Shown here: in pieces, positions 16,560 to 46,341 of the stretch
How positions within the stretch are numbered: the stretch's first letter is position 1
How the letters are laid out: each line of letters opens with the position of its first letter
Origin: Escherichia coli
GTDB lineage: Bacteria; Pseudomonadota; Gammaproteobacteria; Enterobacterales; Enterobacteriaceae
Direction: 5' to 3' (one strand)
DNA length: 64,000 bases
Assembly: GCF_030384885.1 (NCBI RefSeq)
Contig: NZ_CP128613.1
Notes under the pieces: generated by a model
Seen by the model: the letters and a program-made list of their open reading frames with translations, nothing else
Told to the model about the DNA's origin: nothing
Databases searched by the model: none
Made by a program: the position numbers and the translations under genes

Positions 16560-17138
16560 TTAACGCGTTCGCTGCGAAAGCACCTGCTGCTTATCCAGCT
16601 TTTTCACCAACGGCTGCACCACTTTATCGCCATGCTGACCAAAATATTGATACAACGTATCGGACGCGCTTTTGGTGAGCACCATAATCTCAATGCGCCG
16701 ATTGCCCGCGCTTTGTGGATTTTTGGCATCCAGCAGCATCTGGTCCGCCATTGCGCTCACCCGCGCTTCGCCCTGTAACACCGGCTGCAACTGGCGGTCC
16801 ACCGCGCCGCCGGAAAGTGCGGTGCGTTTGTCCAGCATCTGCGTGAGCGCCGTACCCTGCGCCTGCCCGCTCTTACGCTGGCTATGACGATAATCGAGCA
16901 ATTGCTGCTCCAGTTGCCCGAGATAGTGATCCGCCTGCTGCAACGTGGTGAGCTGATCGTTAAGCTGCACGCTGTAACGCTGCGGGCGAGTGGTAATCAG
17001 CGGCGAGGCCGGATATTCACTCGCCGTCGCCGGGAGCTTTTGCCGCACCGCCTGAGTGGGCGCAACGGTTGACGACGATACCGCAGCGCTATGCGCGCCG
17101 CCGGTGGCGAGTGATGAAGATGTAAGTCCGACCTGCAT
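16560..17138 (-). pseudogene. lafU: Remnant of lateral-flagellar MotB-like gene (lafU); only the C-terminal OmpA-like tail is recognisable
   Basis: 192-aa ORF ending ...AKNPQSAGNRRIEIMVL (OmpA/MotB tail) but N-terminal region low-complexity with no TM anchor; sits between lfgL and dinB where the laf cluster would be. Confidence 0.4.
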
Positions 17139-26251: not shown

Positions 26252-26253
26252 GC

Positions 26254-26619: not shown

Positions 26620-26649
26620 ACGCTAAGCAATCGCTGTGCCAATTTTTAA

Positions 26650-27408
26650 GTGACTGATGAGAAAGGGTTTATGAGTTTTCAATTTTGCAGGCGGAAGTTG
26701 TATTTCCTCCTGGCGCTGGCCTTACCGGGCTACGCCGCCGTCCATCCCGTGCAACATAGCGCGCGGGAACAAGTCAACGCCCAGGTGCTGAATGCCGCGA
26801 GCCAGCAGATTGAATCGCTGGCGCAACAGCGGCAGTGGCATGACTATCGCTACACCTTTAAGGTCTACATTCCCTCGCAGATTGCGACCGCCGCGCCCTG
26901 CGCTACGGCCCCCGGCGTCACGCTGACTTCGCCTGCGGAAATCGCTCTCAACCGGATGAACTTCACCGTCAGTTGCCCGCAAAGCTGGCAGATGAACGTT
27001 GCGGTGCGCCCGGATGTTCTGGTGCCGGTGGTGATGGCGAAGTCACTGGTTGCCCGCGATACGCCGCTCACGGCAAATGATGTGGAGCTGAAGCCCTACA
27101 ACGTCAGCGCCCAGCGGCGGGATGTGCTGATGGATCTCAATGAAGCGATTGGTTTAAGCAGCAAACATGCCCTGCAACCAGGCAGGCCGCTTACCAAAGA
27201 AGAACTGGTTTCGCCAGTGCTGATCGAGCGCGATCAGCCGGTGATGATTGTTTACCAGAGCGCGGGGATCACCGCCTCGATGCCCGGCGTGGCGCTGAAA
27301 AATGGTCGCAAAGGGGAAATGGTGAAAGTACGTAACGCCAGCAGTCAGCGGGTCATTAGCGCAATAGTGGCGGAAAGCGGCGTGGTGACAACGGTAAGCG
27401 CGGAGTAA
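26650..27408 (+). CDS. lfgA: P-ring assembly chaperone (FlgA homologue), Flag-2
   Basis: 252 aa, signal peptide and C-terminal SAF-like domain; divergent from lfgB. Confidence 0.8.
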   Translation: MTDEKGFMSFQFCRRKLYFLLALALPGYAAVHPVQHSAREQVNAQVLNAASQQIESLAQQRQWHDYRYTFKVYIPSQIATAAPCATAPGVTLTSPAEIALNRMNFTVSCPQSWQMNVAVRPDVLVPVVMAKSLVARDTPLTANDVELKPYNVSAQRRDVLMDLNEAIGLSSKHALQPGRPLTKEELVSPVLIERDQPVMIVYQSAGITASMPGVALKNGRKGEMVKVRNASSQRVISAIVAESGVVTTVSAE

Positions 27409-28205: not shown

Positions 28206-28331
28206 CGCGAATACCTTCCCCATAGCGGAAACGGATTTTCCGCCTGATTTCCAATCCTTTGTTTTTGATGAAAAAAAATCCCGGCACGCTTATTGCACAT
28301 CCTGCACAGCATTAAAGACTGGAAGCCACCT

Positions 28332-29393: not shown

Positions 29394-29451
29394 AAAGCGC
29401 GCATAGCGCCTCCTAACCCATCACATTCACCCACTAACTCACCCAAACACC

Positions 29452-32474: not shown

Positions 32475-32909
32475 CTACTCCGCTAATTTTTGCCGCAGCC
32501 AGCACTGAACGGCGATGTCATCCACCGCTTTTTGCGCTTTCGCCGTGGCACTTTCTTGCTGCTCGCGGCGTTTGTCATCCAGCGTCAGGGTCACCACTTT
32601 TTCTTCGCATGCCGCCGCCGTCAGGTTTTTCTGCATTCGCGTAGCCTTGATGTTTGCCAGCGTTTTTTCCTGCTCCTGCCAGGCGATCACTTTGCGCAAG
32701 GTGCCTTTGTAGCCGCTGACGTTTTTCAGCGATTCCACCGACGCCGCCGCGCCCGCAGATGTTTTCTCCACCAGGTAGCCTAACGCTTTGATATTGTTGT
32801 CATAGCCCGCGCAAATCTGTTTTTGCTTTGCCAGCTCGACGGTTTTGTCTTTGACCGATTTATCCCGCAGGCGCTGCAATTGCGCGAGGGTGTCGATGAT
32901 TTGTCGCAT
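32475..32909 (-). CDS. lfiJ: Flagellar export chaperone (FliJ homologue), Flag-2
   Basis: 144 aa coiled-coil protein immediately after the FliI homologue. Confidence 0.7.
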   Translation of the reverse strand: MRQIIDTLAQLQRLRDKSVKDKTVELAKQKQICAGYDNNIKALGYLVEKTSAGAAASVESLKNVSGYKGTLRKVIAWQEQEKTLANIKATRMQKNLTAAACEEKVVTLTLDDKRREQQESATAKAQKAVDDIAVQCWLRQKLAE

Positions 32910-32911
32910 AG

Positions 32912-34249
32912 TTACTGTTCTGCCTTTTTGGCACCAGGAAAGAGGATTTGCAGGCGGCTTTGTACCAGTTCGAGGGAGGCGGGTTCGCGCATCTCCTGGC
33001 GTAAAAATCGCTCGATGGCCGGGAACATTTTCACCGCTTTGTCGACGCTGGCATCCGCGCCTGCCACGTAGCCACCGAGTGGGATCAGCGGTTTGATCTC
33101 CATATAGGCGGCGTAGTTTTGCTTTAACGCGCGAGCGGATTGCTGATGTTCCGGGCGGGTGACCTGGTTCATGCAGCGGCTGATCGACTGGCCGATATCG
33201 ATGGCCGGATAGTGCCCCGCTTCCGCCAGTTTGCGGGTTAATACGATATGCCCGTCCAGCACCGCGCGGGCGCAGTCGACGATGGGATCTTGCTGATCGT
33301 CGCCTTCCGCCAGCACGGTGTAGATGGCAGTCATCGATCCCGCGCTTTCGCTGTTGCCTGCGCTTTCGACCAGTTTGGGGATCATGCCGAATGCCGACGG
33401 CGGATAGCCTTTGGTGGCGGGTGGTTCGCCAAGCGAGAGCGCAATTTCACGTTGCGCCATCGCATAGCGGGTCAGGGAATCCACCAGCAGTAAAACATGA
33501 TGCCCGCGGTCGCGAAACCAGGCGGCGATGGAGTGGCACAGTTCGGTGGCTTTCAGGCGCATCAGCGGCGATTCATCGGCGGGCGCGACGACGACGATAG
33601 ACTTCGCCAGCCCGTCCGCGCCCAAGGAATGGTCGATAAACTCTTTCACTTCACGCCCGCGTTCGCCAATCAGCCCAACCACCACGATGTCGGCTTTAGT
33701 CTGGCGGGTGATCATCCCCAGCAGCACGCTTTTCCCGACGCCGCTGCCCGCCATTAGCCCGACGCGCTGGCCTTTGCCGATGGTCAGCAGGCCGTTGATC
33801 GCTTTCACGCCCACATCTAAGGGTTCGTCCACCGAACGGCGGGTTAAGGGATTGACCGAGGGCGGTAGCGGCGGCAGAAGGTCGTTGCCGTTCAGGCGGC
33901 CTTTACCATCCAGCGGTTCGCCGAGGCCATTCACCACGCGGCCTAACCAGCTTTCGCCAATCAGGATGTCGTGGGCTTTTTCTTCCGGGAAGACACGCGC
34001 CCCCGCCATCAGGCCAACTGGCTGTTTGAATGGCATTAAATAGGTGATGTCGCGATTAAAGCCCACGGCCTGCGCGTCAATCAGCGTATGATTGGCGCTT
34101 TCTATGCGGCACAGTTGTCCGGTCATTAATGGGCAGCCGACGCTCTCCAGCAGAATGCCGTTCAGGCGCACCAGCCGTCCGGCGACGCGAGCCAGCGGGA
34201 TCGACTCCAGCGAGCGCAGGGCGTTATCGAAAGCAGAAAAATCACTCAC
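32912..34249 (-). CDS. lfiI: Flagellum-specific ATPase (FliI homologue), Flag-2
   Basis: 445 aa with Walker A GSGVGKS and Walker B VLLLVDSLTR. Confidence 0.95.
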   Translation of the reverse strand: MSDFSAFDNALRSLESIPLARVAGRLVRLNGILLESVGCPLMTGQLCRIESANHTLIDAQAVGFNRDITYLMPFKQPVGLMAGARVFPEEKAHDILIGESWLGRVVNGLGEPLDGKGRLNGNDLLPPLPPSVNPLTRRSVDEPLDVGVKAINGLLTIGKGQRVGLMAGSGVGKSVLLGMITRQTKADIVVVGLIGERGREVKEFIDHSLGADGLAKSIVVVAPADESPLMRLKATELCHSIAAWFRDRGHHVLLLVDSLTRYAMAQREIALSLGEPPATKGYPPSAFGMIPKLVESAGNSESAGSMTAIYTVLAEGDDQQDPIVDCARAVLDGHIVLTRKLAEAGHYPAIDIGQSISRCMNQVTRPEHQQSARALKQNYAAYMEIKPLIPLGGYVAGADASVDKAVKMFPAIERFLRQEMREPASLELVQSRLQILFPGAKKAEQ

Positions 34250-34952
34250 CCTGCGACTCCGGCGTTAGCGTCTCTTGCAGTGCGGTCATGCATTGTTCAA
34301 GGCGATGCTCGCAGCCGATATCCAGTTCTGATTTATCGGTAATCACCCGGCATTCCCCCGGCGGCAAATCCGGCGAAGGCGTCAGCCCCCATTCGTTGAC
34401 CTTTACCGGCACCGCATCGCGCAGGCGGTTAAACTCTTCCGTGCTCAGCATCACTTGCAGGGTTTCCGGCATCGCCGGGAAGGCCGCCAGCGCCTCTTCC
34501 ACCAGCGCCAGTAACTGCGTCGGTTGCAGCGCCAGTTCGCAGCGAATCACCTGGCGGGTGACTTTCTCCACCAGTTGCAGCAAATCTTCCCGCTGTTTAC
34601 GTTCGATATGGGCGAGGAAGTCGTTCACTTTACCGCTGATGGCCTCCAGCGGCTGCGCCGCTTCAATAAACTGCTTGCGCCCTTCCTGCTGCCCGGCGAG
34701 GCTGCCTTCGGTGTAGCCCTGACGTTGCCCCTCGGCAAAACCTTGCTGATGACCTTCGCTAAAGCCCTGCTCCTGCCCCTCGGTCATGCCCTGAGCAAAC
34801 CCTTTTTGCAGCCCTTCCTGAAAACCGTCCATCAACTGGCGCTGGTAATCGGCGGCGCTAATGCTGGCAGTGAGCGGTTCTCCGGTCACCGCACGCTGGC
34901 GCGGCGGGAAACGGTGCAGGCGATAGCGCCCGCGCAGTGTTTCAATGGTCAT
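34242..34952 (-). CDS. lfiH: Flagellar export ATPase regulator (FliH homologue), Flag-2
   Basis: 236 aa; between fliG and fliI homologues; overlaps fliI start. Confidence 0.75.
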   Translation of the reverse strand: MTIETLRGRYRLHRFPPRQRAVTGEPLTASISAADYQRQLMDGFQEGLQKGFAQGMTEGQEQGFSEGHQQGFAEGQRQGYTEGSLAGQQEGRKQFIEAAQPLEAISGKVNDFLAHIERKQREDLLQLVEKVTRQVIRCELALQPTQLLALVEEALAAFPAMPETLQVMLSTEEFNRLRDAVPVKVNEWGLTPSPDLPPGECRVITDKSELDIGCEHRLEQCMTALQETLTPESQGE

Positions 34953-34955
34953 GGG

Positions 34956-35999
34956 TTACTCCGCCGTCTGTTCCGCAAAGAGCTGTTGCTGAATTTCGCC
35001 CGCCTCTTCCAGTTCACGGGCGATACCCATGATTTCGCGGCGGATTTGTTCGATACGGCTAACCGGCACCGGACCCAGGCGCGCGGTGATCGCTTCCAGT
35101 TGCTGCACCTGACGTTTTGGCATCACCGCATAAATGGAGCGACGTAACAGGGCTTCGGTGCCTTTCAGCGCCACCGCCCAGTCTTCCATTGGCACTTCGT
35201 CGAGCAGGCGACGGCGTACCTCTTCGTTCTGGCGGCTGAGAATAAAGAAGTCGTACATCTCATCCTGCAACTGCTCCAGCACGTCTTCGTCGCGCTCGCG
35301 CATCTGGTCGAGGATCACCTGCTGGTTTCCCTGGAAGCGGTTGACAATATCCGCCGCCTGTTTGATGCCCTTCACCTTCGAGCCGTGCTCTGAAAGCACC
35401 GACAGGCCGCGTTCGATCAGACGATCCAGTTCATCCACCACGTCGCGGTTGACGTCGTTGAGTTTCGCTACCCGGTAGAGAATTTCGTTTTGCACCGATT
35501 CGTTGAGATAAGAGAGCACCGCCGCCGAGATTTCCGGCGTCAGAAACGCGAGGAATACCGCCTGCAATTGCAGATGTTCTTCGGAGATCAGCATCGCCAG
35601 CTGGCGCGGTTCCACCCATTGCAGGCGCGCCATCCGCGAGCGAATCTCATCGCCGTAGATGCCATTGATCACGCTGCTGGCGATCTCGGTGCCCAGCGCC
35701 TTGTTAAGAATGCCCTGCAACATGGATCGCGATGCGCCGTTGATCCCGCTCTGTTCGCGGAACTCATCAAAGAAGTTATTGATCACTTTGCGTGCCATGC
35801 TGGTTTTGACGCCGGAAAGCCGCGCCATGTTTTCGCTCAGGCGCACCACTTCTTCGCGGCTGAGTTTTTGCATCACCGTTGCCGCCGCTTCTTCGCCCAG
35901 ACACAGCAGCAGAATCGCCGCCTGTTCGAGATAGCTGTTGCTCTTATTTATTGTCAATTCGCTCATTGCTGGTAATCCATTGTCTGAGAACTTCGGCAA
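34956..35999 (-). CDS. lfiG: Flagellar motor switch protein (FliG homologue), Flag-2
   Basis: 347 aa; C-terminal torque helix region; synteny. Confidence 0.85.
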   Translation of the reverse strand: MPKFSDNGLPAMSELTINKSNSYLEQAAILLLCLGEEAAATVMQKLSREEVVRLSENMARLSGVKTSMARKVINNFFDEFREQSGINGASRSMLQGILNKALGTEIASSVINGIYGDEIRSRMARLQWVEPRQLAMLISEEHLQLQAVFLAFLTPEISAAVLSYLNESVQNEILYRVAKLNDVNRDVVDELDRLIERGLSVLSEHGSKVKGIKQAADIVNRFQGNQQVILDQMRERDEDVLEQLQDEMYDFFILSRQNEEVRRRLLDEVPMEDWAVALKGTEALLRRSIYAVMPKRQVQQLEAITARLGPVPVSRIEQIRREIMGIARELEEAGEIQQQLFAEQTAE

Positions 36000-37590
36000 C
36001 GCGATCGGTGTCGCTCATGGCCAGTTTTTGCAGGAACTCGAGTTTCACTTCGAGGCCAGAACTCTGGGACGGCAGGCTGTCATCGCCAGGCAGCGACGGC
36101 AGGTCGACATTTTTACGCTCCTCTTCCGGCACGGCGATCCACGGTTCGCTGATGGCTTCCGGTTCTGGTGTGATAACCGGCGCACGTACCGCCGTCAGCC
36201 GTTTCATCAGCGGGCGCACCACAAAGAACAGCAGCAACAGCGCCAGCAGGCCGCAGCCAATCAGCCGCCCCCACGCCAGTACACTGTCATCTTTCCACAG
36301 TGGAATAACCGGTTCGACAGGCACCGCCTGCGGCACAAAGTTGAGCAGTGATAAGGTGAGATTGTCACCACGCTGGGCGTCGATTCCGGCGGCATTATTC
36401 AGCAACGCGGTCAGTTGCGTGGTTTGCTCCGGCTTCCAGTTTTTCAGCGCCGGGGCGTTTTGATTGAGCACCACCGCCACGTTGAGGCGTTTCACCGCAA
36501 AGCCGGGATGCTGAATATGCTGGACGCTGCGGTCGTAAGAGTAGTCGCGCTTACTTTCGCTGTGTTTGGAAAGCGCTTCCGGCGAGCGGTTTTCTTCCGC
36601 ACCGTTGGTCATCTGATTCGCTGCAATCGGCGGACGGTTACTGAGCGAACCGGGCACGCCCATCGCCACCTGATTAGTGTCGCTGTCCAGCACGCTCTCT
36701 TCGCGGTTGATTTTCGGCGCGTCACCGTAGTGTTCCTGAGTTTCGTCGATGGTGCTGAGGTCGAGATCCGGCATCACACTGACGCGGTAATTCCCCATGC
36801 CAACCAGCGAATCCAGCACGTTCGCCACGCTGGCACGGGTTTTGTCCTGAATATCTTTGAGGATCTGATCGCGTTTACGGGTCGCGGCAGAAACCGCCTC
36901 GCCCGCGCCAATGCCGTCGGTCAGCAGATTTCCCGCCTGATCGACGACGCTGACTTTGCTGGCCTGTAGCCCCGGAATACTGCCGGACACCAGATGCACA
37001 ATGGCGTTCACCTGGTCCATATTCAGCTTCGCGCCGTAATGCAAGCGCACCACCACCGAGGCACTGTTTTGCGGCTCATCGCTGACCACAAACGAGCTTT
37101 CTTCGTTGAGCGCCAGATGCACCCGCGCGCTTTCCACCGCGTCCAGCGACATGATGCTCTGCGCCAGCTCCCCTTCGAGGCTGCGTTTATAGCGCACGTT
37201 CTGCACGAACTGACTGCTGCCGAGCATTTCGTCTTTGTCCATCAGCTCGTAGCCGCTGGGCAATATCGCCTGCACGCCTTTCGCGGCAAGGGTCATGCGC
37301 GTTTTCGACAGTTCGTCTTCCGGCACCAGTATCTGCCCGCTTTGCGGGTCGATGCGGTAGGTGAGCTTTTCGCCGTCCAGCACGGTGACAATCTGCGACA
37401 CGGGCAGATTTTCCTGGCGTCCGTAGAGCGAGACGTAGCCGCGATTCCCCGTCCATAGCACGCTGACGATAATCGCCGTCGCCGCAACGGCAAGCCCCAC
37501 ACCCGCCATCAACGCCCAGCGTTTGTTATCTGCGAGCCGCAGTCGAAACGCCGGAAAGGCCTGGGTTAACTTCTTTATTTGTGCATTCAT
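35944..37590 (-). CDS. lfiF: Flagellar MS-ring protein (FliF homologue), Flag-2
   Basis: 548 aa with N- and C-terminal TM segments. Confidence 0.9.
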   Translation of the reverse strand: MNAQIKKLTQAFPAFRLRLADNKRWALMAGVGLAVAATAIIVSVLWTGNRGYVSLYGRQENLPVSQIVTVLDGEKLTYRIDPQSGQILVPEDELSKTRMTLAAKGVQAILPSGYELMDKDEMLGSSQFVQNVRYKRSLEGELAQSIMSLDAVESARVHLALNEESSFVVSDEPQNSASVVVRLHYGAKLNMDQVNAIVHLVSGSIPGLQASKVSVVDQAGNLLTDGIGAGEAVSAATRKRDQILKDIQDKTRASVANVLDSLVGMGNYRVSVMPDLDLSTIDETQEHYGDAPKINREESVLDSDTNQVAMGVPGSLSNRPPIAANQMTNGAEENRSPEALSKHSESKRDYSYDRSVQHIQHPGFAVKRLNVAVVLNQNAPALKNWKPEQTTQLTALLNNAAGIDAQRGDNLTLSLLNFVPQAVPVEPVIPLWKDDSVLAWGRLIGCGLLALLLLFFVVRPLMKRLTAVRAPVITPEPEAISEPWIAVPEEERKNVDLPSLPGDDSLPSQSSGLEVKLEFLQKLAMSDTDRVAEVLRQWITSNERIDNK

Positions 37591-37594
37591 AGGG

Positions 37595-37936
37595 TTAGAT
37601 CGACATACTCATCAGATCGTTAAATCCGGTGGCGATTTTGTTGCGCACCTGCACCAGCGCGGAGAAAGAGAGCGACGCCTGCTGGCTGGCGATCATCGCC
37701 CCGGCGAGGTCATCACTTTTGCCCGTGTCGACAGCCGTTTGCTGCTGCTCCGCCACCTGCTGGAACTGGTCAACGTGACCGAGCGCGCCGAACATAATAC
37801 GGTTAAACGACACGTCCGGGTCGGTGGAACTGAAGGTCATGGCGGGTAGCACTGGCGCCTGGGCGTTGGCCTGCATCCGCTGCACGTCCTGCATAATTTG
37901 CGCCTGCATGGTGCTGTTGATTGTGGTAATGCTCAT
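37595..37936 (-). CDS. lfiE: Flagellar hook-basal body protein (FliE homologue), Flag-2
   Basis: ORF 37595..38158; likely start MSITTINSTMQAQIMQDVQRMQ (about 113 aa). Confidence 0.8.
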   Translation of the reverse strand: MSITTINSTMQAQIMQDVQRMQANAQAPVLPAMTFSSTDPDVSFNRIMFGALGHVDQFQQVAEQQQTAVDTGKSDDLAGAMIASQQASLSFSALVQVRNKIATGFNDLMSMSI

Positions 37937-37950: not shown

Positions 37951-38937
37951 TCAGGAGAAAACTTCGATACCGTGCTTGCGCATGGAGGCCAGTCGATAGC
38001 GCAGGGCACGTGGGGTAATGCCTAACAGGTCGGCGATTTTGCTGCGGTTGCCCTGATATTTGCGCATCAGGTCGGCGATATATTGATACTGCGCGCTTCG
38101 TCCGTGCTGGCCTAAATCGCCGGTTTCGGCAATGTGGACGGCGGGCTGAACAGGCCATTGCAGTTCACTGTGGTCAGCAATATCGGTGTCCGGCAGGCCT
38201 AATGCATCCGGGTAAATTACGCCGTCGCGATTTAAAATCATTCCCCGCTGAATGGCGTTTTCCAGTTGGCGCACGTTACCGGGCCAGCGGTAATTAAGCA
38301 GCGCACGGCGGGTGGATTCGGACAGGGTGATATTTTTCACCAGCACCGTGGAGTATTTTTTAATAAATGACTCTGCCAGCGGAATAATATCGTTCAGGCG
38401 TTCACGCAGTGGCGGCATGGTAATAGGGATAACCGCCAGACGATAATAGAGATCTTCACGAAAACGTCCGGCGGCAACTTCCTGCTCCAGGTTTTTATTG
38501 GTGCAGGCAATCAGGCGAAAATTGAGTTTGATTTGTCGGTTACTGCCTAATCGCTCAACCTGTTGTTCCTGCAATACGCGTAATATTTTGGCCTGTAGCG
38601 CCAGCGGCATTTCACCAATTTCATCGAGTAATAAGGTGCCGTTATTTGCCAGTTCCATTTTTCCTGGCACGCTGGCAATTGCGCCGGTAAATGCACCTTT
38701 GTCGTAGCCAAATAACGTCGATTCCAGCATATTTTCCGGGATCGCCGCGCAGTTCACGCCGATATAGGGCGCATTATCATTTTCACCAAAGGCTACGGTG
38801 TGAATATACTTCGCCACGCACTCTTTCCCCGCGCCGGTTTCGCCCTGAATCAGGACCGGCACGTTAAAGGCGGCGACACGCTTTGCCAGAGTAAAAGCGT
38901 TAATGCTGGAGGCGGCAGATGCAATAAGTTCAGACAT
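37951..38937 (-). CDS. lafK: Sigma-54-dependent transcriptional activator, AAA+ and HTH only, no receiver domain (LafK-like)
   Basis: 328 aa: Walker A GETGAGKE, GAFTGA sigma-54 contact motif, C-terminal Fis-type HTH; ORF begins directly at the AAA+ domain. Confidence 0.85.
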   Translation of the reverse strand: MSELIASAASSINAFTLAKRVAAFNVPVLIQGETGAGKECVAKYIHTVAFGENDNAPYIGVNCAAIPENMLESTLFGYDKGAFTGAIASVPGKMELANNGTLLLDEIGEMPLALQAKILRVLQEQQVERLGSNRQIKLNFRLIACTNKNLEQEVAAGRFREDLYYRLAVIPITMPPLRERLNDIIPLAESFIKKYSTVLVKNITLSESTRRALLNYRWPGNVRQLENAIQRGMILNRDGVIYPDALGLPDTDIADHSELQWPVQPAVHIAETGDLGQHGRSAQYQYIADLMRKYQGNRSKIADLLGITPRALRYRLASMRKHGIEVFS

Positions 38938-39060
38938 AGGGTGAACAATATAAGTAGCGACAATAATCAGGATGTTCTGAAGCGTATCACCGGCGGGATT
39001 AACAAGTTTGAATTAAACGATAATAAAAATATTATTTGTTTACAAACAACGAGTTATCCA

Positions 39061-39143
39061 TGTAGGCCGGATAAGGCGTTTACGCCGCATCCGACAATCT
39101 TGCACCGGTGCCTGATGCGATGCTGCGCGTCTTATCAGGCCTA
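39061..39143. repeat. REP/BIME palindromic units in the lafK / lfiM divergent region
   Basis: TGTAGGCCGGATAAGGCGTTTACGCCGCATCCG ... GCCTGATGCGATGCTGCGCGTCTTATCAGGCCTAC. Confidence 0.85.
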
Positions 39144-39323
39144 CTGTTCGTGCAATGTTTTATGACGATGCCTGATATCTCACCCTTTAATAATTTAATT
39201 ATTTTTTCACCCTATTAATAATTTGCCCCTTTCACGCCCCGTCTATTTAATACCTCACCTTGTGTCACTGCCGGAATTGCATGCACAAAAACGCCCATAC
39301 CATTACAGCAGAGAAAGTAAGCC

Positions 39324-40175
39324 ATGCTGAAGTACAGTAAAACGCCAGGCATCTTTAAATTAGAAGGTAATCGGCTCGGACGCCCCTACCATCGCCTGCC
39401 GACCCTGTTTACGGGGAATTTTGACGTGATTGATTCGCATCTTGGCAGCTACTTTCTCAAAAAGCATCGCAGCAATATCACTTTAAAAAAGATTGGTTGC
39501 GAAATGGATATTATTAATAAAAACGCCGAGTTGATGGTTTCCCAGGTCGGGCATCTGGCGTTTGATATTGATCGTTCCTTATTGTTAATGCTGCTGGGTA
39601 ATTTTTATGGTCTGGAATCGTCTCTTGAAGAGGCGAAAGCGCATAACGGCCTACCGACCAAAACCGAAACACGATTAAAGAACCGACTCGCGCTGGATAT
39701 CTGCACGCTGATATTTAATCTGCAAACCTCCGGTATTGCACTGAAATTAAAACTGGACAGCAGCACAGTGATTACCCACTGGGCGTATCAATTAACCTTT
39801 ACCCTCGCGGGCGATGAAGAGAGCCGTTTTCGTATTTTGCTCGACGATGCCCACACCGATTTTATTTTAAATCTGATCCGCCACAGTGAGCACAGTAAAC
39901 CGCAGCAGGTGGCGAAATCCGTCAACAAGCCGGCACTGATTAAAGAGATCATCCGCTCCCTGCCGTTGACCCTGAACGTCAAAATCGCCGAGCTGTCGAT
40001 GAATGTTGCCGATCTGGCGCAGGTAAAAGCCGGAGATATTTTACCCATCTCGCTGGGAGAAACGTTCCCGGTGGCGATTGGGCAATCTGAATTATTTAGC
40101 GCCCTGATAGTGGAAGACAAAGACAAACTGTTTTTGTCGGAGCTGGCGGGCAAAAATGAGAATAGCCATGAGTAA
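39324..40175 (+). CDS. lfiM: Flagellar motor switch protein (FliM-like), Flag-2
   Basis: 283 aa with C-terminal SpoA-like segment (LAQVKAGDILPISL); followed by the FliN homologue. Confidence 0.7.
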   Translation: MLKYSKTPGIFKLEGNRLGRPYHRLPTLFTGNFDVIDSHLGSYFLKKHRSNITLKKIGCEMDIINKNAELMVSQVGHLAFDIDRSLLLMLLGNFYGLESSLEEAKAHNGLPTKTETRLKNRLALDICTLIFNLQTSGIALKLKLDSSTVITHWAYQLTFTLAGDEESRFRILLDDAHTDFILNLIRHSEHSKPQQVAKSVNKPALIKEIIRSLPLTLNVKIAELSMNVADLAQVKAGDILPISLGETFPVAIGQSELFSALIVEDKDKLFLSELAGKNENSHE

Positions 40176-40539
40176 GCAAGAAGATATTTTAGCCGGGGAT
40201 TTTGGCCTCACCGATGACGTTGCGCCTGTCACGAAATCCGCCGACGCCGAAACGCTGGTCACCCGCCTGGAGGACCGTTTTTCCGACTCGATGACGCTGC
40301 TGAAACGCATTCCGGTGACCTTAACGCTGGAAGTCTCCTCGGTGGAAATCATGTTAGCCGACCTGCTGAACATCGACGATGACACGGTGATTGAACTGGA
40401 TAAACTCGCCGGGGAGCCGCTGGATATCAAAGTGAACAATATCCTGCTGGGCAAAGCGGAAGTGGTAGTGGTCAACGAGAAGTACGGCCTGCGCGTGCTG
40501 GAGTTTAACACCCGCGATATCAACGACCTGGCGCCATGA
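40156..40539 (+). CDS. lfiN: Flagellar motor switch protein (FliN homologue), Flag-2
   Basis: 127 aa SpoA domain (VTLTLEVSSVEIMLADLLNIDDDTVIELDKLAGEPLDI). Confidence 0.85.
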   Translation: MRIAMSKQEDILAGDFGLTDDVAPVTKSADAETLVTRLEDRFSDSMTLLKRIPVTLTLEVSSVEIMLADLLNIDDDTVIELDKLAGEPLDIKVNNILLGKAEVVVVNEKYGLRVLEFNTRDINDLAP

Positions 40540-41288
40540 AACGCCGCACTCAACTGACGCTGGGCCTGGCGCTGCTGGCGCTCGCGCCGCTGGCATTAGC
40601 CCAGGGCGGCGATATTGCGCTGCTTAATGTGGTCACTCACGGCAACACTCAGGAGTACAGCGTCAAAATTCAGGTACTGATTCTGATGACCCTCGTCGGT
40701 TTGTTGCCGACGATGGTGCTGATGATGACCTGCTTTACGCGCTTTATTATCGTGCTTTCACTACTGCGCCAGGCGCTGGGGCTGCAACAAACGCCGCCAA
40801 ACCGCATTCTGATTGGCATTGCGCTCTCCCTCACCCTGCTGGTGATGCGCCCTGTCTGGCTGAATATTTACGACCACGCGGTGGTGCCGTTCGAAAACGA
40901 TCAGATTACCCTGACCGATGCGTTAAGCACCGCCGCGACGCCGCTGAAACGCTTTATGCTGGCGCAGACCGACAAAAAAGCGATGGCGCAAATCATGACC
41001 ATCGGCGGCGCAAAGGGCAATGCCGCCGACCAGGATCTCTCCATCGTGGTGCCCGCCTATGTGCTGAGCGAACTGAAAACCGCTTTCCAGATTGGCTTTA
41101 TGATTTACATCCCGTTTCTGGTTATCGACCTGATTGTCGCCAGCGTATTGATGGCGATGGGGATGATGATGCTGTCGCCGCTGATCGTTTCGCTGCCCTT
41201 TAAGCTGATGCTGTTTGTGCTGATCGACGGCTGGTCGTTGACCATCGGCACGCTCACCACCAGCATTCGCGGACTGGGGCTGGGCTGA
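40536..41288 (+). CDS. lfiP: Flagellar export apparatus protein (FliP homologue), Flag-2
   Basis: 250 aa polytopic membrane protein; overlapping start/stop with neighbours. Confidence 0.9.
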   Translation: MKRRTQLTLGLALLALAPLALAQGGDIALLNVVTHGNTQEYSVKIQVLILMTLVGLLPTMVLMMTCFTRFIIVLSLLRQALGLQQTPPNRILIGIALSLTLLVMRPVWLNIYDHAVVPFENDQITLTDALSTAATPLKRFMLAQTDKKAMAQIMTIGGAKGNAADQDLSIVVPAYVLSELKTAFQIGFMIYIPFLVIDLIVASVLMAMGMMMLSPLIVSLPFKLMLFVLIDGWSLTIGTLTTSIRGLGLG

Positions 41289-41290
41289 TT

Positions 41291-41563
41291 ATGCTGACCG
41301 TTGACGTAGCCGCCGACATTGTCGCCAGCGGCATAAAAGTGGTGATTTTACTGGTTTCGGTACTGGTGGTGCCAAGCCTGCTCGTTGGCCTGCTGGTGAG
41401 CGTGTTCCAGGCGGTGACGCAGATTAACGAACAGACCCTGAGCTTTTTGCCGAGGCTGATTGTCACGCTGGTGGTGCTGGGGATATGCGGCAAATGGATG
41501 ATTACCCAGTTGCATGACCTGTGCATTCACCTGTTTAGCCAGGCCGCGTTGCTGGTGCATTAA
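41291..41563 (+). CDS. lfiQ: Flagellar export apparatus protein (FliQ homologue), Flag-2
   Basis: 90 aa, two TM segments. Confidence 0.85.
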   Translation: MLTVDVAADIVASGIKVVILLVSVLVVPSLLVGLLVSVFQAVTQINEQTLSFLPRLIVTLVVLGICGKWMITQLHDLCIHLFSQAALLVH

Positions 41564-41564
41564 G

Positions 41565-42347
41565 ATGCGCACAAGCGACGTTACGCAACTGACGGATCTG
41601 GCGCTGGGGCTGTGGTTTCCCTTCGTGCGCATTATGGCGTTTCTGCGCTATGTGCCGGTGCTGGATAACAGCGCCCTGACTATGCGCGTGCGGATTATTT
41701 TGTCGCTGGCGCTGGCAATCATCATCACGCCGTTGATCCCCCATCCCATTCCGCATGATTTGCTCTCGCTCAACAGTTTGATCCTGACGGTGGAGCAAAT
41801 CTTATGGGGCATGTTATTCGGGCTGATGTTTCAGTTTCTGTTTCTGGCGCTGCAACTCGCCGGGCAAATTCTCTCGTTCAATATGGGGATGAGCATGGCG
41901 GTGATGAACGACCCGAGCAGCGGCGCATCGACCACCGTGCTGGCGGAGCTTATCAACGTCTACGCGATCCTGCTGTTTTTTGCCATGGACGGGCATCTGT
42001 TGCTGGTGAGCGTGTTGTACAAGGGCTTCACCTACTGGCCGATTGGCAACGCGCTGCATCCGCAAACCCTGCGCACCATTGCGCTGGCCTTTAGCTGGGT
42101 GCTGGCGTCCGCATCGCTGCTTGCGCTGCCGACCACTTTTATCATGCTGATTGTGCAGGGCTGCTTTGGCCTGCTCAACCGCATTGCGCCGCCGCTGAAT
42201 CTCTTTTCACTTGGCTTTCCCATCAACATGCTGGCAGGGCTGGTCTGCTTTGCCACCCTGCTCTACAACCTGCCGGATCACTATCTGCATATGGCGAATT
42301 TTGTGTTGCAGCAGCTCGACGCGCTGAAAGGTCACTATGGCGGATAG
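41565..42347 (+). CDS. lfiR: Flagellar export apparatus protein (FliR homologue), Flag-2
   Basis: ORF 41514..42347; likely start MRTSDVTQLTDLALGLWFPF at about 41565. Confidence 0.85.
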   Translation: MRTSDVTQLTDLALGLWFPFVRIMAFLRYVPVLDNSALTMRVRIILSLALAIIITPLIPHPIPHDLLSLNSLILTVEQILWGMLFGLMFQFLFLALQLAGQILSFNMGMSMAVMNDPSSGASTTVLAELINVYAILLFFAMDGHLLLVSVLYKGFTYWPIGNALHPQTLRTIALAFSWVLASASLLALPTTFIMLIVQGCFGLLNRIAPPLNLFSLGFPINMLAGLVCFATLLYNLPDHYLHMANFVLQQLDALKGHYGG

Positions 42348-43476
42348 CAGCAGCGAAGAAAAAACAGAGAAACCCTCGGCGCAAAAGCTGCGTAAAGCGC
42401 GTGAAGAGGGACAACTGCCGCGCTCAAAGGATATAGGGCTGGCGGCGAGCCTGTTTGCGGCGTTTGTGGTGATCTCCAGCAGCTTCCCGTGGTATGCCGA
42501 TTTTGTACGCGAGAGTTTTATCAGCGTGCATCAGTACGCGCAGGAGATTAATAACCCGGAGGTGATCGGCCAGTTTCTGCGCCATCACCTGTTAATTCTC
42601 GGCAAGTTTATTCTCACCTTGCTACCGATGCCCGCCGCCGCGCTGCTCTCTTCGCTGGTGCCCGGTGGCTGGCTGTTCTTGCCAAAAAAAATCCTCCCGG
42701 ATTTCAGCAAAATCAGTCCGTTAAAAGGGATTGGGCGGCTGTTCTCCAGTGAACATCTTGCGGAAACAGGCAAGATGACGGCGAAGTCGGTGGTGGTGCT
42801 GGTGATGCTGTGGATTAGCCTGCGCAATAACTTTGCCGCCTTCCTCGGCCTGCAAGCGCTGCCGTTCAAACTGGCGATGAATGAGGGTTTGTCGCTCTAC
42901 GCCAGCGTGATGCGCAACTTTGTCATCCTGTTTATTTTCTTCGCGCTTATCGACGTGCCGCTGGCGAAAGCCCTGTTCACCAAAGGGCTGAAGATGACTA
43001 AGCAGGAGCTGAAAGAAGAGTACAAAAATCAGGAAGGCAAGCCGGAAGTGAAGGCGCGCGTGCGGCGGCTGCAACGGCAACTGGCGATGGGGCAAATTCG
43101 CAAAGTGGTGCCGAAAGCCAACGTGGTGATCACCAACCCGACCCACTACGCCGTGGCGTTGCAGTATGACCAGTCACGCGCCGCCGCGCCGTTTGTGGTG
43201 GCAAAAGGTACCGATGAAATCGCCCTCTATATTCGTCAGGTCGCCACTGAAAATCAGGTGGAAGTGGTCGAGTTCCCGCGACTGGCGCGCTCGGTTTACT
43301 ACACCACCCAGGTGAATCAGCAAATTCCGTTTCAGCTTTACCGGGCCATCGCCCACGTTCTGACCTACGTCCTGCAAATGAAACACTGGCGCGACGGCGC
43401 ACAGCCGCGCCCGGCTCTGAACAGACATATTTCCATTCCCAAAGAGGTGCTTAAACTGGATGGCGAAAACAACTAA
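42337..43476 (+). CDS. lfhB: Flagellar export apparatus switch protein (FlhB homologue), Flag-2
   Basis: 379 aa with NPTH autocleavage motif (VVITNPTHYAVAL). Confidence 0.9.
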   Translation: MADSSSEEKTEKPSAQKLRKAREEGQLPRSKDIGLAASLFAAFVVISSSFPWYADFVRESFISVHQYAQEINNPEVIGQFLRHHLLILGKFILTLLPMPAAALLSSLVPGGWLFLPKKILPDFSKISPLKGIGRLFSSEHLAETGKMTAKSVVVLVMLWISLRNNFAAFLGLQALPFKLAMNEGLSLYASVMRNFVILFIFFALIDVPLAKALFTKGLKMTKQELKEEYKNQEGKPEVKARVRRLQRQLAMGQIRKVVPKANVVITNPTHYAVALQYDQSRAAAPFVVAKGTDEIALYIRQVATENQVEVVEFPRLARSVYYTTQVNQQIPFQLYRAIAHVLTYVLQMKHWRDGAQPRPALNRHISIPKEVLKLDGENN

Positions 43477-45553
43477 ATCGTTCCTCGCGCTACTGCGCGG
43501 CGGCAATCTCGGCGTGCCGCTGGTGATCTTGTGTATTCTGGCGATGGTTATTTTGCCGCTGCCGCCTGCGCTGCTGGATATTCTGTTCACCTTCAACATT
43601 GTGCTGGCGGTGATGGTGCTGCTGGTGGCGGTGTCGGCGAAACGTCCGCTGGAATTCAGCCTGTTCCCGACTATTTTGCTGATCACCACCTTAATGCGCC
43701 TGACGCTTAACGTTGCTTCTACGCGCGTGGTGCTGCTGCACGGGCATCTCGGCGCGGGCGCAGCGGGTAAGGTGATTGAGTCGTTTGGTCAGGTGGTGAT
43801 TGGCGGCAACTTTGTCGTCGGTTTCGTGGTGTTTATCATCCTGATGATCATCAACTTTATTGTCGTCACCAAAGGGGCCGAGCGTATTTCCGAGGTTTCT
43901 GCCCGCTTTACCCTAGACGCGATGCCCGGCAAGCAAATGGCGATTGACGCCGATCTTAACGCCGGGTTGATCAACCAGGCGCAGGCGCAGACCCGCCGCA
44001 AAGATGTTGCCAGCGAGGCCGATTTCTACGGCGCGATGGACGGGGCATCGAAGTTTGTGCGCGGGGATGCCATCGCCGGGATGATGATTCTGGCGATCAA
44101 CCTGATTGGCGGCGTTTGTATCGGGATCTTCAAATACAACCTGAGCGCCGATGCCGCCTTCCAGCAGTATGTGCTGATGACCATCGGTGACGGGCTGGTA
44201 GCGCAGATCCCGTCCCTGCTGCTCTCTACCGCGGCAGCGATTATCGTCACCCGCGTCAGCGACAACGGCGATATCGCCCATGACGTGCGCCATCAGTTGC
44301 TGGCAAGCCCGTCGGTGCTCTACACCGCCACCGGGATTATGTTCGTGCTGGCGGTGGTGCCGGGAATGCCGCACTTCCCGTTCCTGATGTTCAGCGCCTT
44401 GCTTGGCTTTACCGGCTGGCGAATGAGCAAACGCCCGCAGGCGGCGGAGGCGGAAGAGAAAAGCCTCGAAACGCTGACCCGCACAATCACTGAAACCAGC
44501 GAGCAACAGGTCAGTTGGGAAACCATTCCGCTGATCGAGCCCATCAGTTTAAGCCTCGGTTACAAGCTGGTGGCGCTGGTGGACAAAGCGCAGGGCAACC
44601 CGCTCACCCAGCGTATTCGCGGCGTGCGGCAGGTGATTTCCGACGGCAACGGCGTGCTGCTGCCGGAGATCCGTATTCGCGAAAACTTCCGCCTCAAGCC
44701 CAGCCAGTACGCCATTTTCATCAACGGCATTAAGGCTGATGAAGCTGATATTCCGGCGGATAAACTGATGGCGTTGCCCTCCAGCGAAACCTACGGCGAG
44801 ATAGACGGCGTGCTGGGGAACGACCCGGCGTACGGGATGCCGGTCACCTGGATTCAGCCCGCGCAGAAGGCGAAGGCGCTGAATATGGGGTATCAGGTGA
44901 TCGACAGCGCCAGCGTGATTGCTACCCATGTTAATAAGATTGTGCGCAGCTATATTCCTGATTTGTTTAACTATGACGACATCACGCAGTTGCATAACCG
45001 TTTGTCGTCAATGGCACCGCGCCTGGCAGAGGATTTGAGTGCGGCGCTGAATTACAGCCAGTTGCTGAAAGTGTACCGGGCACTACTGACCGAAGGCGTT
45101 TCCCTGCGCGATATCGTCACCATCGCCACCGTGCTGGTCGCCAGTAGCACCGTCACCAAAGATCATATTCTGCTGGCGGCCGATGTGCGCCTGGCACTGC
45201 GGCGCAGCATTACCCATCCGTTCGTTCGCAAGCAGGAGCTGACGGTGTATACGCTGAATAATGAGCTGGAAAACCTGCTGTCCAACGTGGTGAATCAGGC
45301 GCAACAGGCTGGCAAAGTGATGCTCGATAGCGTGCCGGTGGACCCGAATATGCTCAACCAGTTCCAGAACACGATGCCGCAGGTGAAAGAGCAGATGAAA
45401 GCGGCAGGGAAAGACCCGGTGCTGCTGGTGCCGCCGCAGTTGCGCCCTTTGCTGGCGCGTTATGCGAGGTTGTTTGCGCCGGGGTTGCATGTGCTGTCGT
45501 ATAACGAAGTGCCGGACGAGCTGGAGTTGAAGATTATGGGGGCGTTGAGTTGA
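43460..45553 (+). CDS. lfhA: Flagellar export apparatus gate protein (FlhA homologue), Flag-2, full length
   Basis: 697 aa; N-terminal TM domain, conserved FHIPx-like region and cytoplasmic C-domain. Confidence 0.9.
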   Translation: MAKTTKSFLALLRGGNLGVPLVILCILAMVILPLPPALLDILFTFNIVLAVMVLLVAVSAKRPLEFSLFPTILLITTLMRLTLNVASTRVVLLHGHLGAGAAGKVIESFGQVVIGGNFVVGFVVFIILMIINFIVVTKGAERISEVSARFTLDAMPGKQMAIDADLNAGLINQAQAQTRRKDVASEADFYGAMDGASKFVRGDAIAGMMILAINLIGGVCIGIFKYNLSADAAFQQYVLMTIGDGLVAQIPSLLLSTAAAIIVTRVSDNGDIAHDVRHQLLASPSVLYTATGIMFVLAVVPGMPHFPFLMFSALLGFTGWRMSKRPQAAEAEEKSLETLTRTITETSEQQVSWETIPLIEPISLSLGYKLVALVDKAQGNPLTQRIRGVRQVISDGNGVLLPEIRIRENFRLKPSQYAIFINGIKADEADIPADKLMALPSSETYGEIDGVLGNDPAYGMPVTWIQPAQKAKALNMGYQVIDSASVIATHVNKIVRSYIPDLFNYDDITQLHNRLSSMAPRLAEDLSAALNYSQLLKVYRALLTEGVSLRDIVTIATVLVASSTVTKDHILLAADVRLALRRSITHPFVRKQELTVYTLNNELENLLSNVVNQAQQAGKVMLDSVPVDPNMLNQFQNTMPQVKEQMKAAGKDPVLLVPPQLRPLLARYARLFAPGLHVLSYNEVPDELELKIMGALS

Positions 45554-45636
45554 TTGAGGATTCTTTTCCATACTTTGCAGCACCTGACACCATTAATTGA
45601 CGTCACACTGCAAAGAGACTACGATGACACCATACA

Positions 45637-46285: not shown

Positions 46286-46318
46286 ACAGGTCGGATGCCG
46301 CGTGGCATCCGACCTGTT
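46285..46318. terminator. Perfect hairpin between the HicB-like gene and yafL (bidirectional)
   Basis: AACAGGTCGGATGCCGCGTGGCATCCGACCTGTT. Confidence 0.6.
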
Positions 46319-46341
46319 GCCAGTTCGTCAATATTACCCAT

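Follow-up and report, generated by a model that had tools for sequence, protein, structure and literature searches.

The gene analysed here is lafK of the Escherichia Flag-2 (lateral) flagellar system, and its product is probably best explained as a receiver-less activator of the FlrC/FleR type, which is controlled through its own transcription and has a predicted regulon consisting of lfgB, lafV and lafB. The assignment to the orthologous group is based on the position in a lateral locus upstream of a fliE-fliJ type operon and on 95–99% identity to the LafK clusters of E. coli.

In the window, i.e., the whole stretch of 64,000 nucleotides that was analysed, the lafK ORF is intact and encodes a sigma-54 enhancer-binding protein composed of an AAA+ domain, a lid (AAA_lid_14, residues 178–246 in Pfam) and a Fis-type helix-turn-helix (HTH) (Table 1); its orthologue carries the RefSeq label 'sigma-54 interaction domain-containing protein'. 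We located Walker A (GETGAGKE) at residues 32–39 (nt 38821–38844) with 31 residues preceding it, GAFTGA at residues 81–86 (nt 38680–38697), Walker B (LLLDE) at residues 102–106, FREDLYYRL at residues 159–167, and WPGNVRQLEN at residues 218–227, all of which are invariant across the orthologue alignment. With PF00158 and all catalytic and sigma-54-contact motifs present, LafK qualifies by its sequence as a bEBP and is predicted to activate the sigma-54 holoenzyme with ATP hydrolysis. The C-terminal HTH_8, in which LGITPRALRYRL is kept among the orthologues, is presumed to be the enhancer-binding domain.

No N-terminal domain was detected by Pfam, and the receiver model PF00072 gave no match. 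Alignments to Pfam and NCBIfam models begin at residues 2–8 of LafK compared with about 120–200 in receiver-containing regulators, and those to FlbD, NtrC, FlgR and others start at their residue 120–140 or so. The AAA+ domain thus begins close to the N-terminus, where residue 4 of LafK corresponds to residue 8 of PspF and residue 3 aligns with the start of the ordered part of the FlrC AAA+ construct. Having neither a receiver nor upstream coding potential, LafK does not belong to the response regulators of the NtrC/FlrC type, but fits the domain-minimal type Ic class of bEBPs (AAA+ and HTH without a signal-recognition domain). The original prediction of a LafK-like, receiver-less ORF therefore holds, as Pfam detected only AAA+, lid and HTH and the same short form is found between lfiM and lfiE across genera. 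Its statement that the ORF starts at the AAA+ domain was also correct, but Walker A lies further inside the protein than the 12 residues given there.

Table 1. Positions of the lafK gene, its domains and the associated features in the window
Feature	Position	Strand	Basis
lafK CDS, 328 aa, ATG start, AAA+ / lid / HTH	37951..38937	-	ORF list, Pfam
AAA+ sigma-54 interaction domain, residues 6–172	38422..38922	-	Pfam Sigma54_activat PF00158, E=1.9e-64
Fis-type helix-turn-helix HTH_8 (PF02954), residues 284–317, E=7.8e-09	37987..38088	-	Pfam
lfiE-lfiF-lfiG-lfiH-lfiI-lfiJ	32478..37936	-	Synteny conserved in Citrobacter, Hafnia, Budvicia
Divergent operon lfiM-lfiN-lfiP-lfiQ-lfiR-lfhB-lfhA, C-ring and export gate	39324..45553	+	ORFs, annotation
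Divergent lafK/lfiM control region, 386 bp, AT-rich, non-coding	38938..39323	.	Translation, motif scans
REP/BIME, paired REP palindromes	39065..39141	+	Rfam RF02564 naRNA4, 73.5 bits vs gathering 59.5
Sigma-70-like promoter candidate for lafK, TGGATA-18-AATAAT, weak consensus match 9/12	39031..39060	-	Consensus comparison
Predicted sigma-54 promoter of lfgBCDEFGHIJKL (rod/hook), TGGCACAGCGATTGCT, 11/11, 36 nt before lfgB ATG	26626..26641	-	Consensus TGGCAC-N5-TTGCW
Candidate LafK enhancer, CAGGAGGAAA-TACAA-CTTCCGCCTG, 46 nt upstream of the lfgB promoter motif (TGGCAC)	26688..26712	.	
Predicted sigma-54 promoter of lafV and glycosyltransferase gene, CGGCACGCTTATTGCA, 10/11, 34 nt before ATG	28282..28297	+	
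Candidate LafK enhancer, dyad GCGGAAA-CGGAT-TTTCCGC, 14/14, about 38 nt upstream of the lafV motif (CGGCAC)	28225..28243	.	
lafU'-'lafW fusion ORF over 9.7-kb deletion, junction 16757–16761	16560..17138	-	Junction absent from 5426 complete E. coli genomes

The Flag-2 locus and its truncation

The gene order lfiM <- spacer -> lafK-lfiE-lfiF-lfiG is common to E. coli, Citrobacter, Hafnia, and Budvicia. The stop codon of lafK lies 14 nt from the ATG of lfiE with a ribosome-binding site (GGAAG) in the gap, and lafK is probably co-transcribed with lfiEFGHIJ.

Flag-2 cluster 3 has been deleted from this genome region, comprising lafT, lafS (sigma-28), lafF, lafE, lafD, lafC, lafB, lafA (flagellin), and lafZ as well as parts of lafU and lafW; the lower tier lost in the window consists of LafS, LafA, the LafTU stators, the cap, the chaperones, and LafZ. 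Since cluster 3 is missing from the window, the Flag-2 hierarchy is truncated, and LafK can here at most drive the formation of a hook-basal body, but not of a working flagellum, unless cluster 3 is located elsewhere in the genome. The deletion junction was found in none of 5426 complete E. coli genomes, and this uniqueness suggests a recent event. The 31 Flag-2 genes that remain, lafK among them, all have their full length and are uninterrupted by stop codons.

Based on the loss of the whole cluster by a single 9.7-kb deletion seen in none of the complete E. coli genomes searched, and on the frequent gene loss and en bloc loss described for flag-2 loci (De Maayer et al., PMC6993521), we lean towards the view that lafK is stranded without useful output in a locus under decay, surviving only because the deletion is recent, though the remaining 31 genes are intact and cluster 3 could lie outside the window. 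This view concerns the present role of the gene and is compatible with the molecular nature of LafK as a receiver-less Flag-2 activator. A partial locus with 31 intact genes for basal body, hook and regulator also offers a natural case for the residual function of a flagellar locus.

Predicted targets and control of lafK

The scan for sigma-54 promoters that was originally proposed as a check gave strong sites before lfgB and lafV, but none before lafK or lfiM. The lfgB site is the one perfect match to the consensus in the 64-kb window (0.04 expected) and is conserved in E. coli (loci L001 and L002), Leminorella, Enterobacter, and Serratia. The second site precedes lafV, which encodes a lysine-N-methylase. 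Motifs scoring at least 9/11 occur 13 times in the window compared with 10.4 +/- 2.7 by chance, i.e., without any excess, and only the top-scoring, correctly placed sites carry meaning there.

Both promoters are preceded by a dyad (GCGGAAA-N5-TTTCCGC), and the two places in the window where it matches best are those before lafV (14/14) and lfgB (12/14). The dyad is found either 36 or 47–51 nt upstream of the -24 element, two spacings about one helical turn apart. A search for the combined pattern of dyad and promoter over 100,044 species resulted in 23 matches, 15 of which were located 33–74 nt upstream of homologues of lfgB, lafV or lafB, including those of Vibrio rotiferianus and Photobacterium galatheae. 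The other eight (in Bacteroides, Acidobacteria, Micrarchaeota and others) had no flagellar context and were counted as chance. At promoters that had not been chosen by the pattern, the dyad scored 13 of 14 (Leminorella lfgB), 12 (Leminorella lafV), 12 (Enterobacter lfgB), and 10 (Serratia lfgB), in each case 48–51 nt upstream and with background frequencies of such scores of 0.002–0.044. The sites of Escherichia, Citrobacter, and Pseudocitrobacter are 90–96% identical at the DNA level and thus add little independent support. Since the lfgB dyad lies inside the coding region of lfgA, its conservation could also partly reflect coding constraint.

The co-occurrence with the promoters suggests that LafK may bind the dyad, though another protein could do so as well. 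In V. parahaemolyticus, the flgB2, lafA, and lafB promoters have predicted RpoN sites, and RpoN binding was tested by EMSA (PMC9817140). No description of a LafK binding site was found in the literature searched, the coverage of which was incomplete. We consider the arguments evenly balanced as to whether the dyad represents a previously undescribed LafK enhancer, ranging from Vibrionaceae to Enterobacteriaceae and defining a three-promoter regulon, and as such supports an origin of LafK from the FlrC/FleR type by receiver loss. If this is true, control shifted with the loss of the receiver from phosphorylation of the activator to transcription of its gene. The predicted enhancer-promoter modules also provide a testable map of LafK targets in the poorly studied enterobacterial Flag-2 system.

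The region upstream of lafK is divergent, as predicted, and its length of 386 bp differs only trivially from the 380 bp originally given. The REP element and the AT-richness noted there were confirmed by an Rfam match above the gathering threshold and by a GC content of 41.7% (36.9% without the REP), while the window has 51.8% and the Flag-2 region 56%. A query containing the REP matched 5424 of 5426 E. coli genomes with a median of 12 places per genome. In the spacer, the element sits between two AT-rich blocks that can be aligned with Citrobacter, but is itself Escherichia-specific, as it is arranged differently in E. coli CE0007a and absent from Citrobacter. The -10-like AATAAT of the sigma-70-like promoter candidate falls in a Citrobacter-conserved block. 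Sigma-54 motifs of at least 8/11 were detected neither in the lafK-lfiM spacer of the window nor in that of Citrobacter or Budvicia, while a single 8/11 match occurs in the Hafnia spacer (488 nt upstream of lafK). We thus rejected the existence of a sigma-54 promoter serving either lafK or lfiM, the best candidate (7/11, 344 nt from the ATG) being unconserved outside Escherichia. Autoregulation by LafK via the dyad was rejected as well; the best spacer match (11/14) lies inside the REP, and since other REP copies (19669 and 23011) reach the same score, it is a property of the REP and not a LafK site. Candidate LafK dyads are absent from the spacer here and in three other genera.

A long AT-rich spacer with neither a sigma-54 promoter nor a LafK dyad is consistent with the original suggestion that LafK is controlled via its own expression. 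For A. hydrophila, a dependence of lafK on sigma-70 was reported (PMC4481668). In V. parahaemolyticus, lafK expression drops in an rpoN mutant (PMC9817140), so that sigma-54 independence of lafK is not general.

In the mechanism that we propose, lafK would be transcribed as the first gene of a lafK-lfiEFGHIJ operon from a non-sigma-54, probably sigma-70-type promoter in the AT-rich spacer, and such a promoter in a long control region would place the decision to build the apparatus at lafK transcription. LafK has no cis regulatory domain and is therefore expected to oligomerise unaided; its domain content suggests that both ATPase activity and oligomerisation may be constitutive. The HTH would bind the dyad 36–51 nt upstream of the -24 element, and the protein would open the sigma-54 promoters using ATP hydrolysis and its GAFTGA loop. 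Its predicted targets are the rod/hook operon starting with lfgB and, for flagellin modification, lafV and the glycosyltransferase gene. Complete loci would add the lafB operon, probably from lafB through lafU and thus including the sigma-28 gene lafS. Based on the promoters and dyads at lfgB and lafV, LafK is predicted to be required for lateral class II gene expression. The operons for export gate, C-ring, MS-ring, and ATPase have neither of the two elements, so that their expression is predicted not to require LafK, which agrees with the Aeromonas model. The original placement of LafK at the head of the hierarchy can thus be kept, as a prediction, for lfgB and lafV, and for lafB where the locus is complete, while the lfiM and lafK-lfiE operons are predicted to lie outside LafK control.

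LafK might instead be controlled post-translationally in trans by a partner protein or a small ligand acting on its AAA+ domain, as are PspF, HrpS, and FleQ, but we regard this as unlikely. PspF is held by PspA, HrpS by HrpV, and FleQ by FleN and c-di-GMP, and the AAA+ domains of FlrC and FleQ, to which that of LafK is related, are reported to bind c-di-GMP. Regulation in trans applies to the very proteins listed beside LafK as receiver-less (PspF and HrpR/S), but the lists of annotated Flag-2 genes contain no PspA-, HrpV- or FleN/FlhG-like protein, and control of LafK at the level of transcription is in line with the length, conservation and AT-richness of the control region and with its lack of autoregulatory sites.

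Orthologues and the region upstream of lafK

An in-frame stop codon is located 25 codons 5' of the lafK ATG with no alternative start in between, so that the check for upstream in-frame coding potential came out negative. Translation of all frames of the 386-bp spacer revealed multiple stops in all three, and the equivalent spacers of 594–641 bp in Citrobacter, Hafnia, and Budvicia have only stop-ridden frames instead of a receiver-coding one. LafK orthologues of 324–348 aa with the identical three domains were identified in at least 10 enterobacterial genera (Citrobacter, Leminorella, Atlantibacter, Hafnia, Budvicia, Pragia, Pantoea, and others), always in the lfiM-lfiE interval and with N-terminal leaders of only 0–30 aa in the alignment. 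The window protein is 99% identical to E. coli cluster P0001 (1606 member sequences; four substitutions compared with its representative) and 95% identical to the orthologue of E. coli CE0007a. A receiver-less homologue of 368 aa was also found upstream of fliE in a MotY-type lateral locus. This receiver-less short form is conserved throughout the orthologous group and extends to lateral loci of bacteria outside the Enterobacterales.

That a receiver regulator was truncated or pseudogenised to give the short ORF, or that a sequencing or assembly error hides an N-terminal receiver, is hardly conceivable, since the spacer frames are all stopped (37–42% GC), the spacers of Citrobacter, Hafnia, and Budvicia are non-coding as well, and hundreds of independent genomes give a LafK of 324–348 aa, against which stand a few proteins of 462–521 aa joining a receiver or ACT/PAS N-terminus to a LafK-identical C-terminus (P0047, P0065, P0119, and P0078). 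These were rejected as longer LafK relatives, being metagenome assembly chimeras; their N-termini resemble other sigma-54 activators (by eye, two NtrC-like and one TyrR-like), and the LafK sequence sets in at motifs common to all sigma-54 activators. A receiver interrupted by a sequencing error, named originally as the finding that would overturn the prediction, is thus excluded by the upstream stops and the short orthologues.

Comparison with known systems

The LafK protein encoded by the Flag-2 locus of E. coli 042 was reportedly described by Ren et al. in 2005. It occupies the same position (lfhAB-lfiRQPNM / lafK-lfiEFGHIJ), and with 95–99% identity of the window protein to the E. coli clusters, the lafK studied here is an allelic variant in a locus that differs from that of strain 042 by the lack of cluster 3. 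The 042 protein was used as CAH19120.1 by De Maayer et al. 2020 (PMC6993521) and is a predicted Flag-2 regulator. In the literature, LafK figures as a master regulator or class-II regulator of lateral flagella that depends on sigma-54 (PMC4481668) and was grouped with PspF and HrpR/S as an activator without a signal-recognition domain (PMC3162934, Francke et al. 2011). The receiver-less architecture of LafK is thus already known, and our finding that it has no sensory domain confirms a correct annotation, but changes little for the field.

LafK of V. parahaemolyticus and A. hydrophila, a sigma-54 activator of lateral class II genes, is likewise listed as lacking a signal-recognition domain. 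Judging from the receiver-less lateral homologue P0153, an identity of about 45–48% to the vibrio and Aeromonas proteins is expected, and the combination of dyad and sigma-54 promoter before lafB is common to Vibrio rotiferianus and Photobacterium. While the vibrio gene follows motY and depends on rpoN for its expression, lafK in the window is transcribed divergently from lfiM, with no sigma-54 promoter in front of it.

PspF shares the same three-part architecture and a nearly equal length (PspF model 329 aa), but LafK scored far below the PspF equivalog cut-offs (TIGR02974, 237.8 vs 443.55; PRK11608, 207.4 vs 529). The regulon of PspF is unrelated and its context is psp, while the window context is flagellar and the locus has no PspA-like anti-activator. 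HrpR/HrpS of the Pseudomonas syringae T3SS are likewise receiver-less, belong with LafK to type Ic and also drive a type III export machine. In their case, two paralogues assemble into a heterohexamer under the control of HrpV/HrpG, while LafK is encoded by a single gene.

Among the solved structures, the AAA+ domain of V. cholerae FlrC was the closest (256.6 bits), followed by FleQ (218), FlrA (213.5), and PspF (185). FlrC and FleR (Pseudomonas) share with LafK the C-terminal HTH_8 and the gene position upstream of fliE-fliJ. The position immediately before fliE-J is also taken by distant receiver-less homologues, one of which follows FleQ and a histidine kinase. The N-terminal receiver of FlrC/FleR is phosphorylated by FlrB or FleS, while LafK has no such receiver and the locus of the window does not encode a kinase. 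With an FlrC-like AAA+ domain and the FlrC/FleR slot upstream of fliE, LafK thus looks like an activator of the FlrC/FleR type that has lost its receiver.

Architecture and conservation of LafK

The stretch represents the Escherichia Flag-2 (lateral-type, second flagellar) locus between dinB and yafL and is carried by 1273 of 5426 complete E. coli genomes. In RefSeq, the ORF is annotated as encoding a sigma-54 interaction domain protein and is flanked by fliE and a divergent FliM-like gene; lafK occupies this position in the published lfhAB-lfiRQPNM-lafK-lfiEFGHIJ cluster (PMC6993521). The ORF product is 99% identical to an E. coli cluster of 1606 sequences. Since the lfiE ATG lies 14 nt from the lafK stop codon, lafK probably heads the lafK-lfiEFGHIJ operon.

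Pfam analysis of the deduced protein revealed Sigma54_activat (residues 6-172, E=1.9e-64), AAA_lid_14 (178-246), and HTH_8 (284-317), while no domain was detected N-terminal of the ATPase. Alignments with NCBIfam models of FlbD, NtrC, FlgR, AtoC, and other receiver-containing activators started at LafK residues 2-20 and at about model residue 120-200, so that LafK corresponds to these regulators minus their N-terminal module. The original prediction of a receiver-less ORF starting at the AAA+ domain was thus borne out (LafK residue 4 aligns with PspF residue 8), except that 31 and not 12 residues precede Walker A.

The first in-frame stop is located 25 codons 5' of the lafK ATG with no alternative start between, and stops are abundant in all three frames of the 386-bp lafK-lfiM spacer (38938-39323). 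Homologues of 59-84% identity from Citrobacter, Leminorella, Enterobacter, Scandinavium, Pseudescherichia, Atlantibacter, Siccibacter, Budvicia, Pantoea, Hafnia, Pragia, Regiella, and Erwinia were 324-348 aa long and shared this three-domain Pfam architecture; in their alignment, leaders of 0-30 residues precede the AAA+ domain and none includes a receiver. In Citrobacter, Hafnia, and Budvicia, lafK occupies the same genomic position, with non-coding spacers of 594-641 bp (29-35% GC). Four longer database proteins with an apparent receiver, ACT, or PAS domain (P0047, P0065, P0119, and P0078; 462-521 aa) were rejected as metagenome assembly chimeras, in which N-terminal parts of other activators (by eye, two NtrC-like and one TyrR-like) are fused to the C-terminal part of LafK at motifs that all sigma-54 activators have in common; such chimeras could mislead domain-architecture surveys. 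Short conserved homologues, non-coding spacers, and the chimeric nature of the long versions together exclude an in-frame receiver interrupted by a sequencing error.

As predicted, the spacer harbors a REP element and is AT-rich, its GC content of 41.7% (36.9% without REP) being lower than that of the window (51.8%) and of the Flag-2 region (56%). A query containing the REP hit almost all E. coli genomes, with a median of 12 matching sites in each. Alignment with Citrobacter revealed two conserved AT-rich blocks on either side of this Escherichia-specific insertion, the arrangement of which differs between E. coli lineages, e.g., in strain CE0007a. A weak sigma-70-like match in the lafK-proximal block offers a lead to a candidate lafK promoter.

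In a separate observation, Flag-2 DNA of Pseudocitrobacter vendiensis (L027) aligned to window 25109-31539, and, as with three further loci (L011-L013), identity was 90-96% over several kb. This is far above intergenus expectation, suggesting that Flag-2 was recently transferred horizontally.

Coordinates of features in the window (unless another locus is named) and motif positions in LafK
Feature	Position	Strand	Remarks
lafK ORF	37951-38937	minus	328 aa, ATG start
Walker A, GETGAGKE	LafK residues 32-39
GAFTGA	LafK residues 81-86
Walker B, LLLDE	LafK residues 102-106
FREDLYYRL	LafK residues 159-167
WPGNVRQLEN	LafK residues 218-227
Predicted lfgB sigma-54 promoter	26641-26626	minus	only perfect match in window, 0.04 expected
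Predicted lafV sigma-54 promoter	28282-28297	plus	10/11 match, 34 nt before lafV
Dyad before lfgB	26688-26712
Dyad before lafV	28225-28243
Dyad, comparison locus L002	13881-13900
Dyad, comparison loci L015, L024, L025, L033-L035
Dyad match inside lfgG	22533-22557		11/14
Sigma-70-like match, weak	39060-39031		TGGATA-18-AATAAT
REP-derived element, full-length	39065-39141		Rfam RF02564 naRNA4, 73.5 bits
REP/BIME copies, Flag-2 intergenic gaps	19609-19807, 22999-23134, 29269-29409, 39057-39165
Deletion junction	16757-16761
lafU'-'lafW fusion ORF	16560-17138		192 aa

Predicted sigma-54 promoters and a candidate enhancer

Scanning the locus with TGGCAC-N5-TTGCW placed a perfect motif 36 nt before the lfgB ATG and a second site before lafV, both conserved in other E. 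coli, and complete loci revealed a third predicted site 32 nt before lafB/fliD. In V. parahaemolyticus, RpoN sites were reported for flgB2 and lafB (PMC9817140). No motif of at least 8/11 was found on either strand of the lafK-lfiM spacer, nor in those of Citrobacter and Budvicia, while the Hafnia spacer showed a sole 8/11 match 488 nt upstream of lafK.

A 9-mer common to the three predicted promoters turned out to be part of a dyad, GCGGAAA-N5-TTTCCGC, which occurs five times in the window (0.58 expected) and whose two best matches there, 14/14 and 12/14, coincide with the sites that precede the predicted lafV and lfgB promoters, respectively. It is present upstream of the lfgB, lafV, and lafB promoters in Enterobacterales and two Vibrionaceae. 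A dyad-plus-promoter scan of one genome each from 100,044 species yielded 23 matches, 15 of which precede lfgB, lafV, or lafB homologues by 33-74 nt. Among these 15 are matches from Enterobacteriaceae bacterium B14, Vibrio rotiferianus, and Photobacterium galatheae, in which the base before GGAAA was also palindromic, though the pattern left it free. Because such a scan selects for the pattern, lfgB regions of Leminorella, the Enterobacter cloacae complex, and Serratia were also fetched by protein identity. Each revealed a strong predicted sigma-54 promoter, and these three and that of Leminorella lafV carried the dyad (10-13/14) 48-51 nt upstream, at background frequencies of 0.002-0.044. Dyad-promoter spacing was either 36 nt or 47-51 nt, two classes that differ by about one helical turn. 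Since the dyad-bearing loci encode no activator with a DNA-binding domain other than LafK, we propose the dyad as a candidate LafK enhancer.

Two further likenesses were noted. The REP core (GCGTAAACGCCTTATCCGG) matches the dyad at 11/14 positions, probably by coincidence. A fourth palindromic match, CCGGAAATCGACGTTCCGG, lies inside lfgG, also in CE0007a, with a weak sigma-54-like motif (8/11), CGGCACGGTGACGGCT, about 36 nt downstream; it could mark a promoter within lfgG, ahead of the 206-bp gap that separates this gene from lfgH, or be a coincidence within coding sequence.

Predicted hierarchy and state of the locus

The cluster 1 operons (lfiM-lfhA and lafK-lfiJ) of Escherichia, Citrobacter, and Hafnia showed neither a sigma-54 promoter nor the dyad. 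In the predicted hierarchy, lafK and the MS-ring, C-ring, and export genes would be transcribed without sigma-54; LafK with sigma-54 would then turn on the rod/hook operon, flagellin-modification genes, and the lafB operon, which probably extends from lafB through lafU and hence would include the sigma-28 gene lafS; sigma-28 genes would form the third tier. This fits the Aeromonas picture (PMC4481668) and the V. parahaemolyticus RpoN sites. Judged from its sequence, LafK might be constitutively active once made. It may instead be restrained by a trans-acting inhibitor, the mode of control of PspF and HrpS.

Compared to a complete E. coli locus, 9.7 kb between lafU and lafW are missing, comprising the cluster 3 genes lafT, lafS, lafF, lafE, lafD, lafC, lafB, lafA (flagellin), and lafZ, the 5' part of lafU (its 3' end is kept), an HTH/RelE pair, and the 3' part of lafW. 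No complete E. coli genome (n = 5426) contained the junction, and the 31 Flag-2 genes that remain are all full length and uninterrupted by stops. The claim that LafK heads the lateral-flagellar hierarchy therefore stands for its predicted lfgB and lafV targets, while the lower tier is absent from the window, unless these genes reside elsewhere in the genome.

At the other end of the locus, the roughly 790 bp that separate lfhA from yafL (45554-46342) have no counterpart in CE0007a, which carries ISEc31 and rayT there, while RMDEC465 carries hicAB; this end is a variable insertion spot.

Relationship to known activators

Among solved structures, the AAA+ domain of V. cholerae FlrC was closest (256.6 bits), followed by NtrC1 (229), FleQ (218), FlrA (213.5), and PspF (185). 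A search of 1.84 billion representatives revealed further receiver-less relatives (44-48% identity), encoded directly upstream of fliE-fliF-fliG-fliH-fliI-fliJ; one gene follows FleQ and a histidine kinase, which is the FleR/FlrC slot, and another comes after an OmpA/MotY-like gene, the arrangement of Vibrio-type lateral loci. Similarity and synteny, rather than a phylogeny, thus lead us to place LafK in the FlrC/FleR lineage with loss of the receiver.

Polar-type flagellar loci L003, L004, and L005 harbor a receiver-less activator in the FleR/FlrC position directly upstream of fliE. In L004 (4772-8400, a Pseudomonadales MAG), it follows FleQ and a HisKA/HATPase kinase, the kinase and activator genes being separated by only 5 nt, and this kinase would have no obvious receiver partner.

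Altogether, the original observation was essentially right apart from its one numerical error, and its interpretation was reasonable but had been published before, and it goes too far for this genome. A candidate enhancer and a unique deletion emerged along the way, both of modest interest. LafK here is an ordinary member of a known family, and its lack of a receiver repeats, for one allele of a gene described earlier, what the literature already says. Like PspF and HrpR/S, with which Francke et al. (2011) classed it as 'lacking the signal recognition domain' (PMC3162934), it has no such domain; in V. parahaemolyticus, LafK is described as the regulator that acts with sigma-54 on lateral flagellar class II genes, and in A. 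hydrophila as a sigma-70-transcribed regulator that is not strictly a master (PMC4481668).
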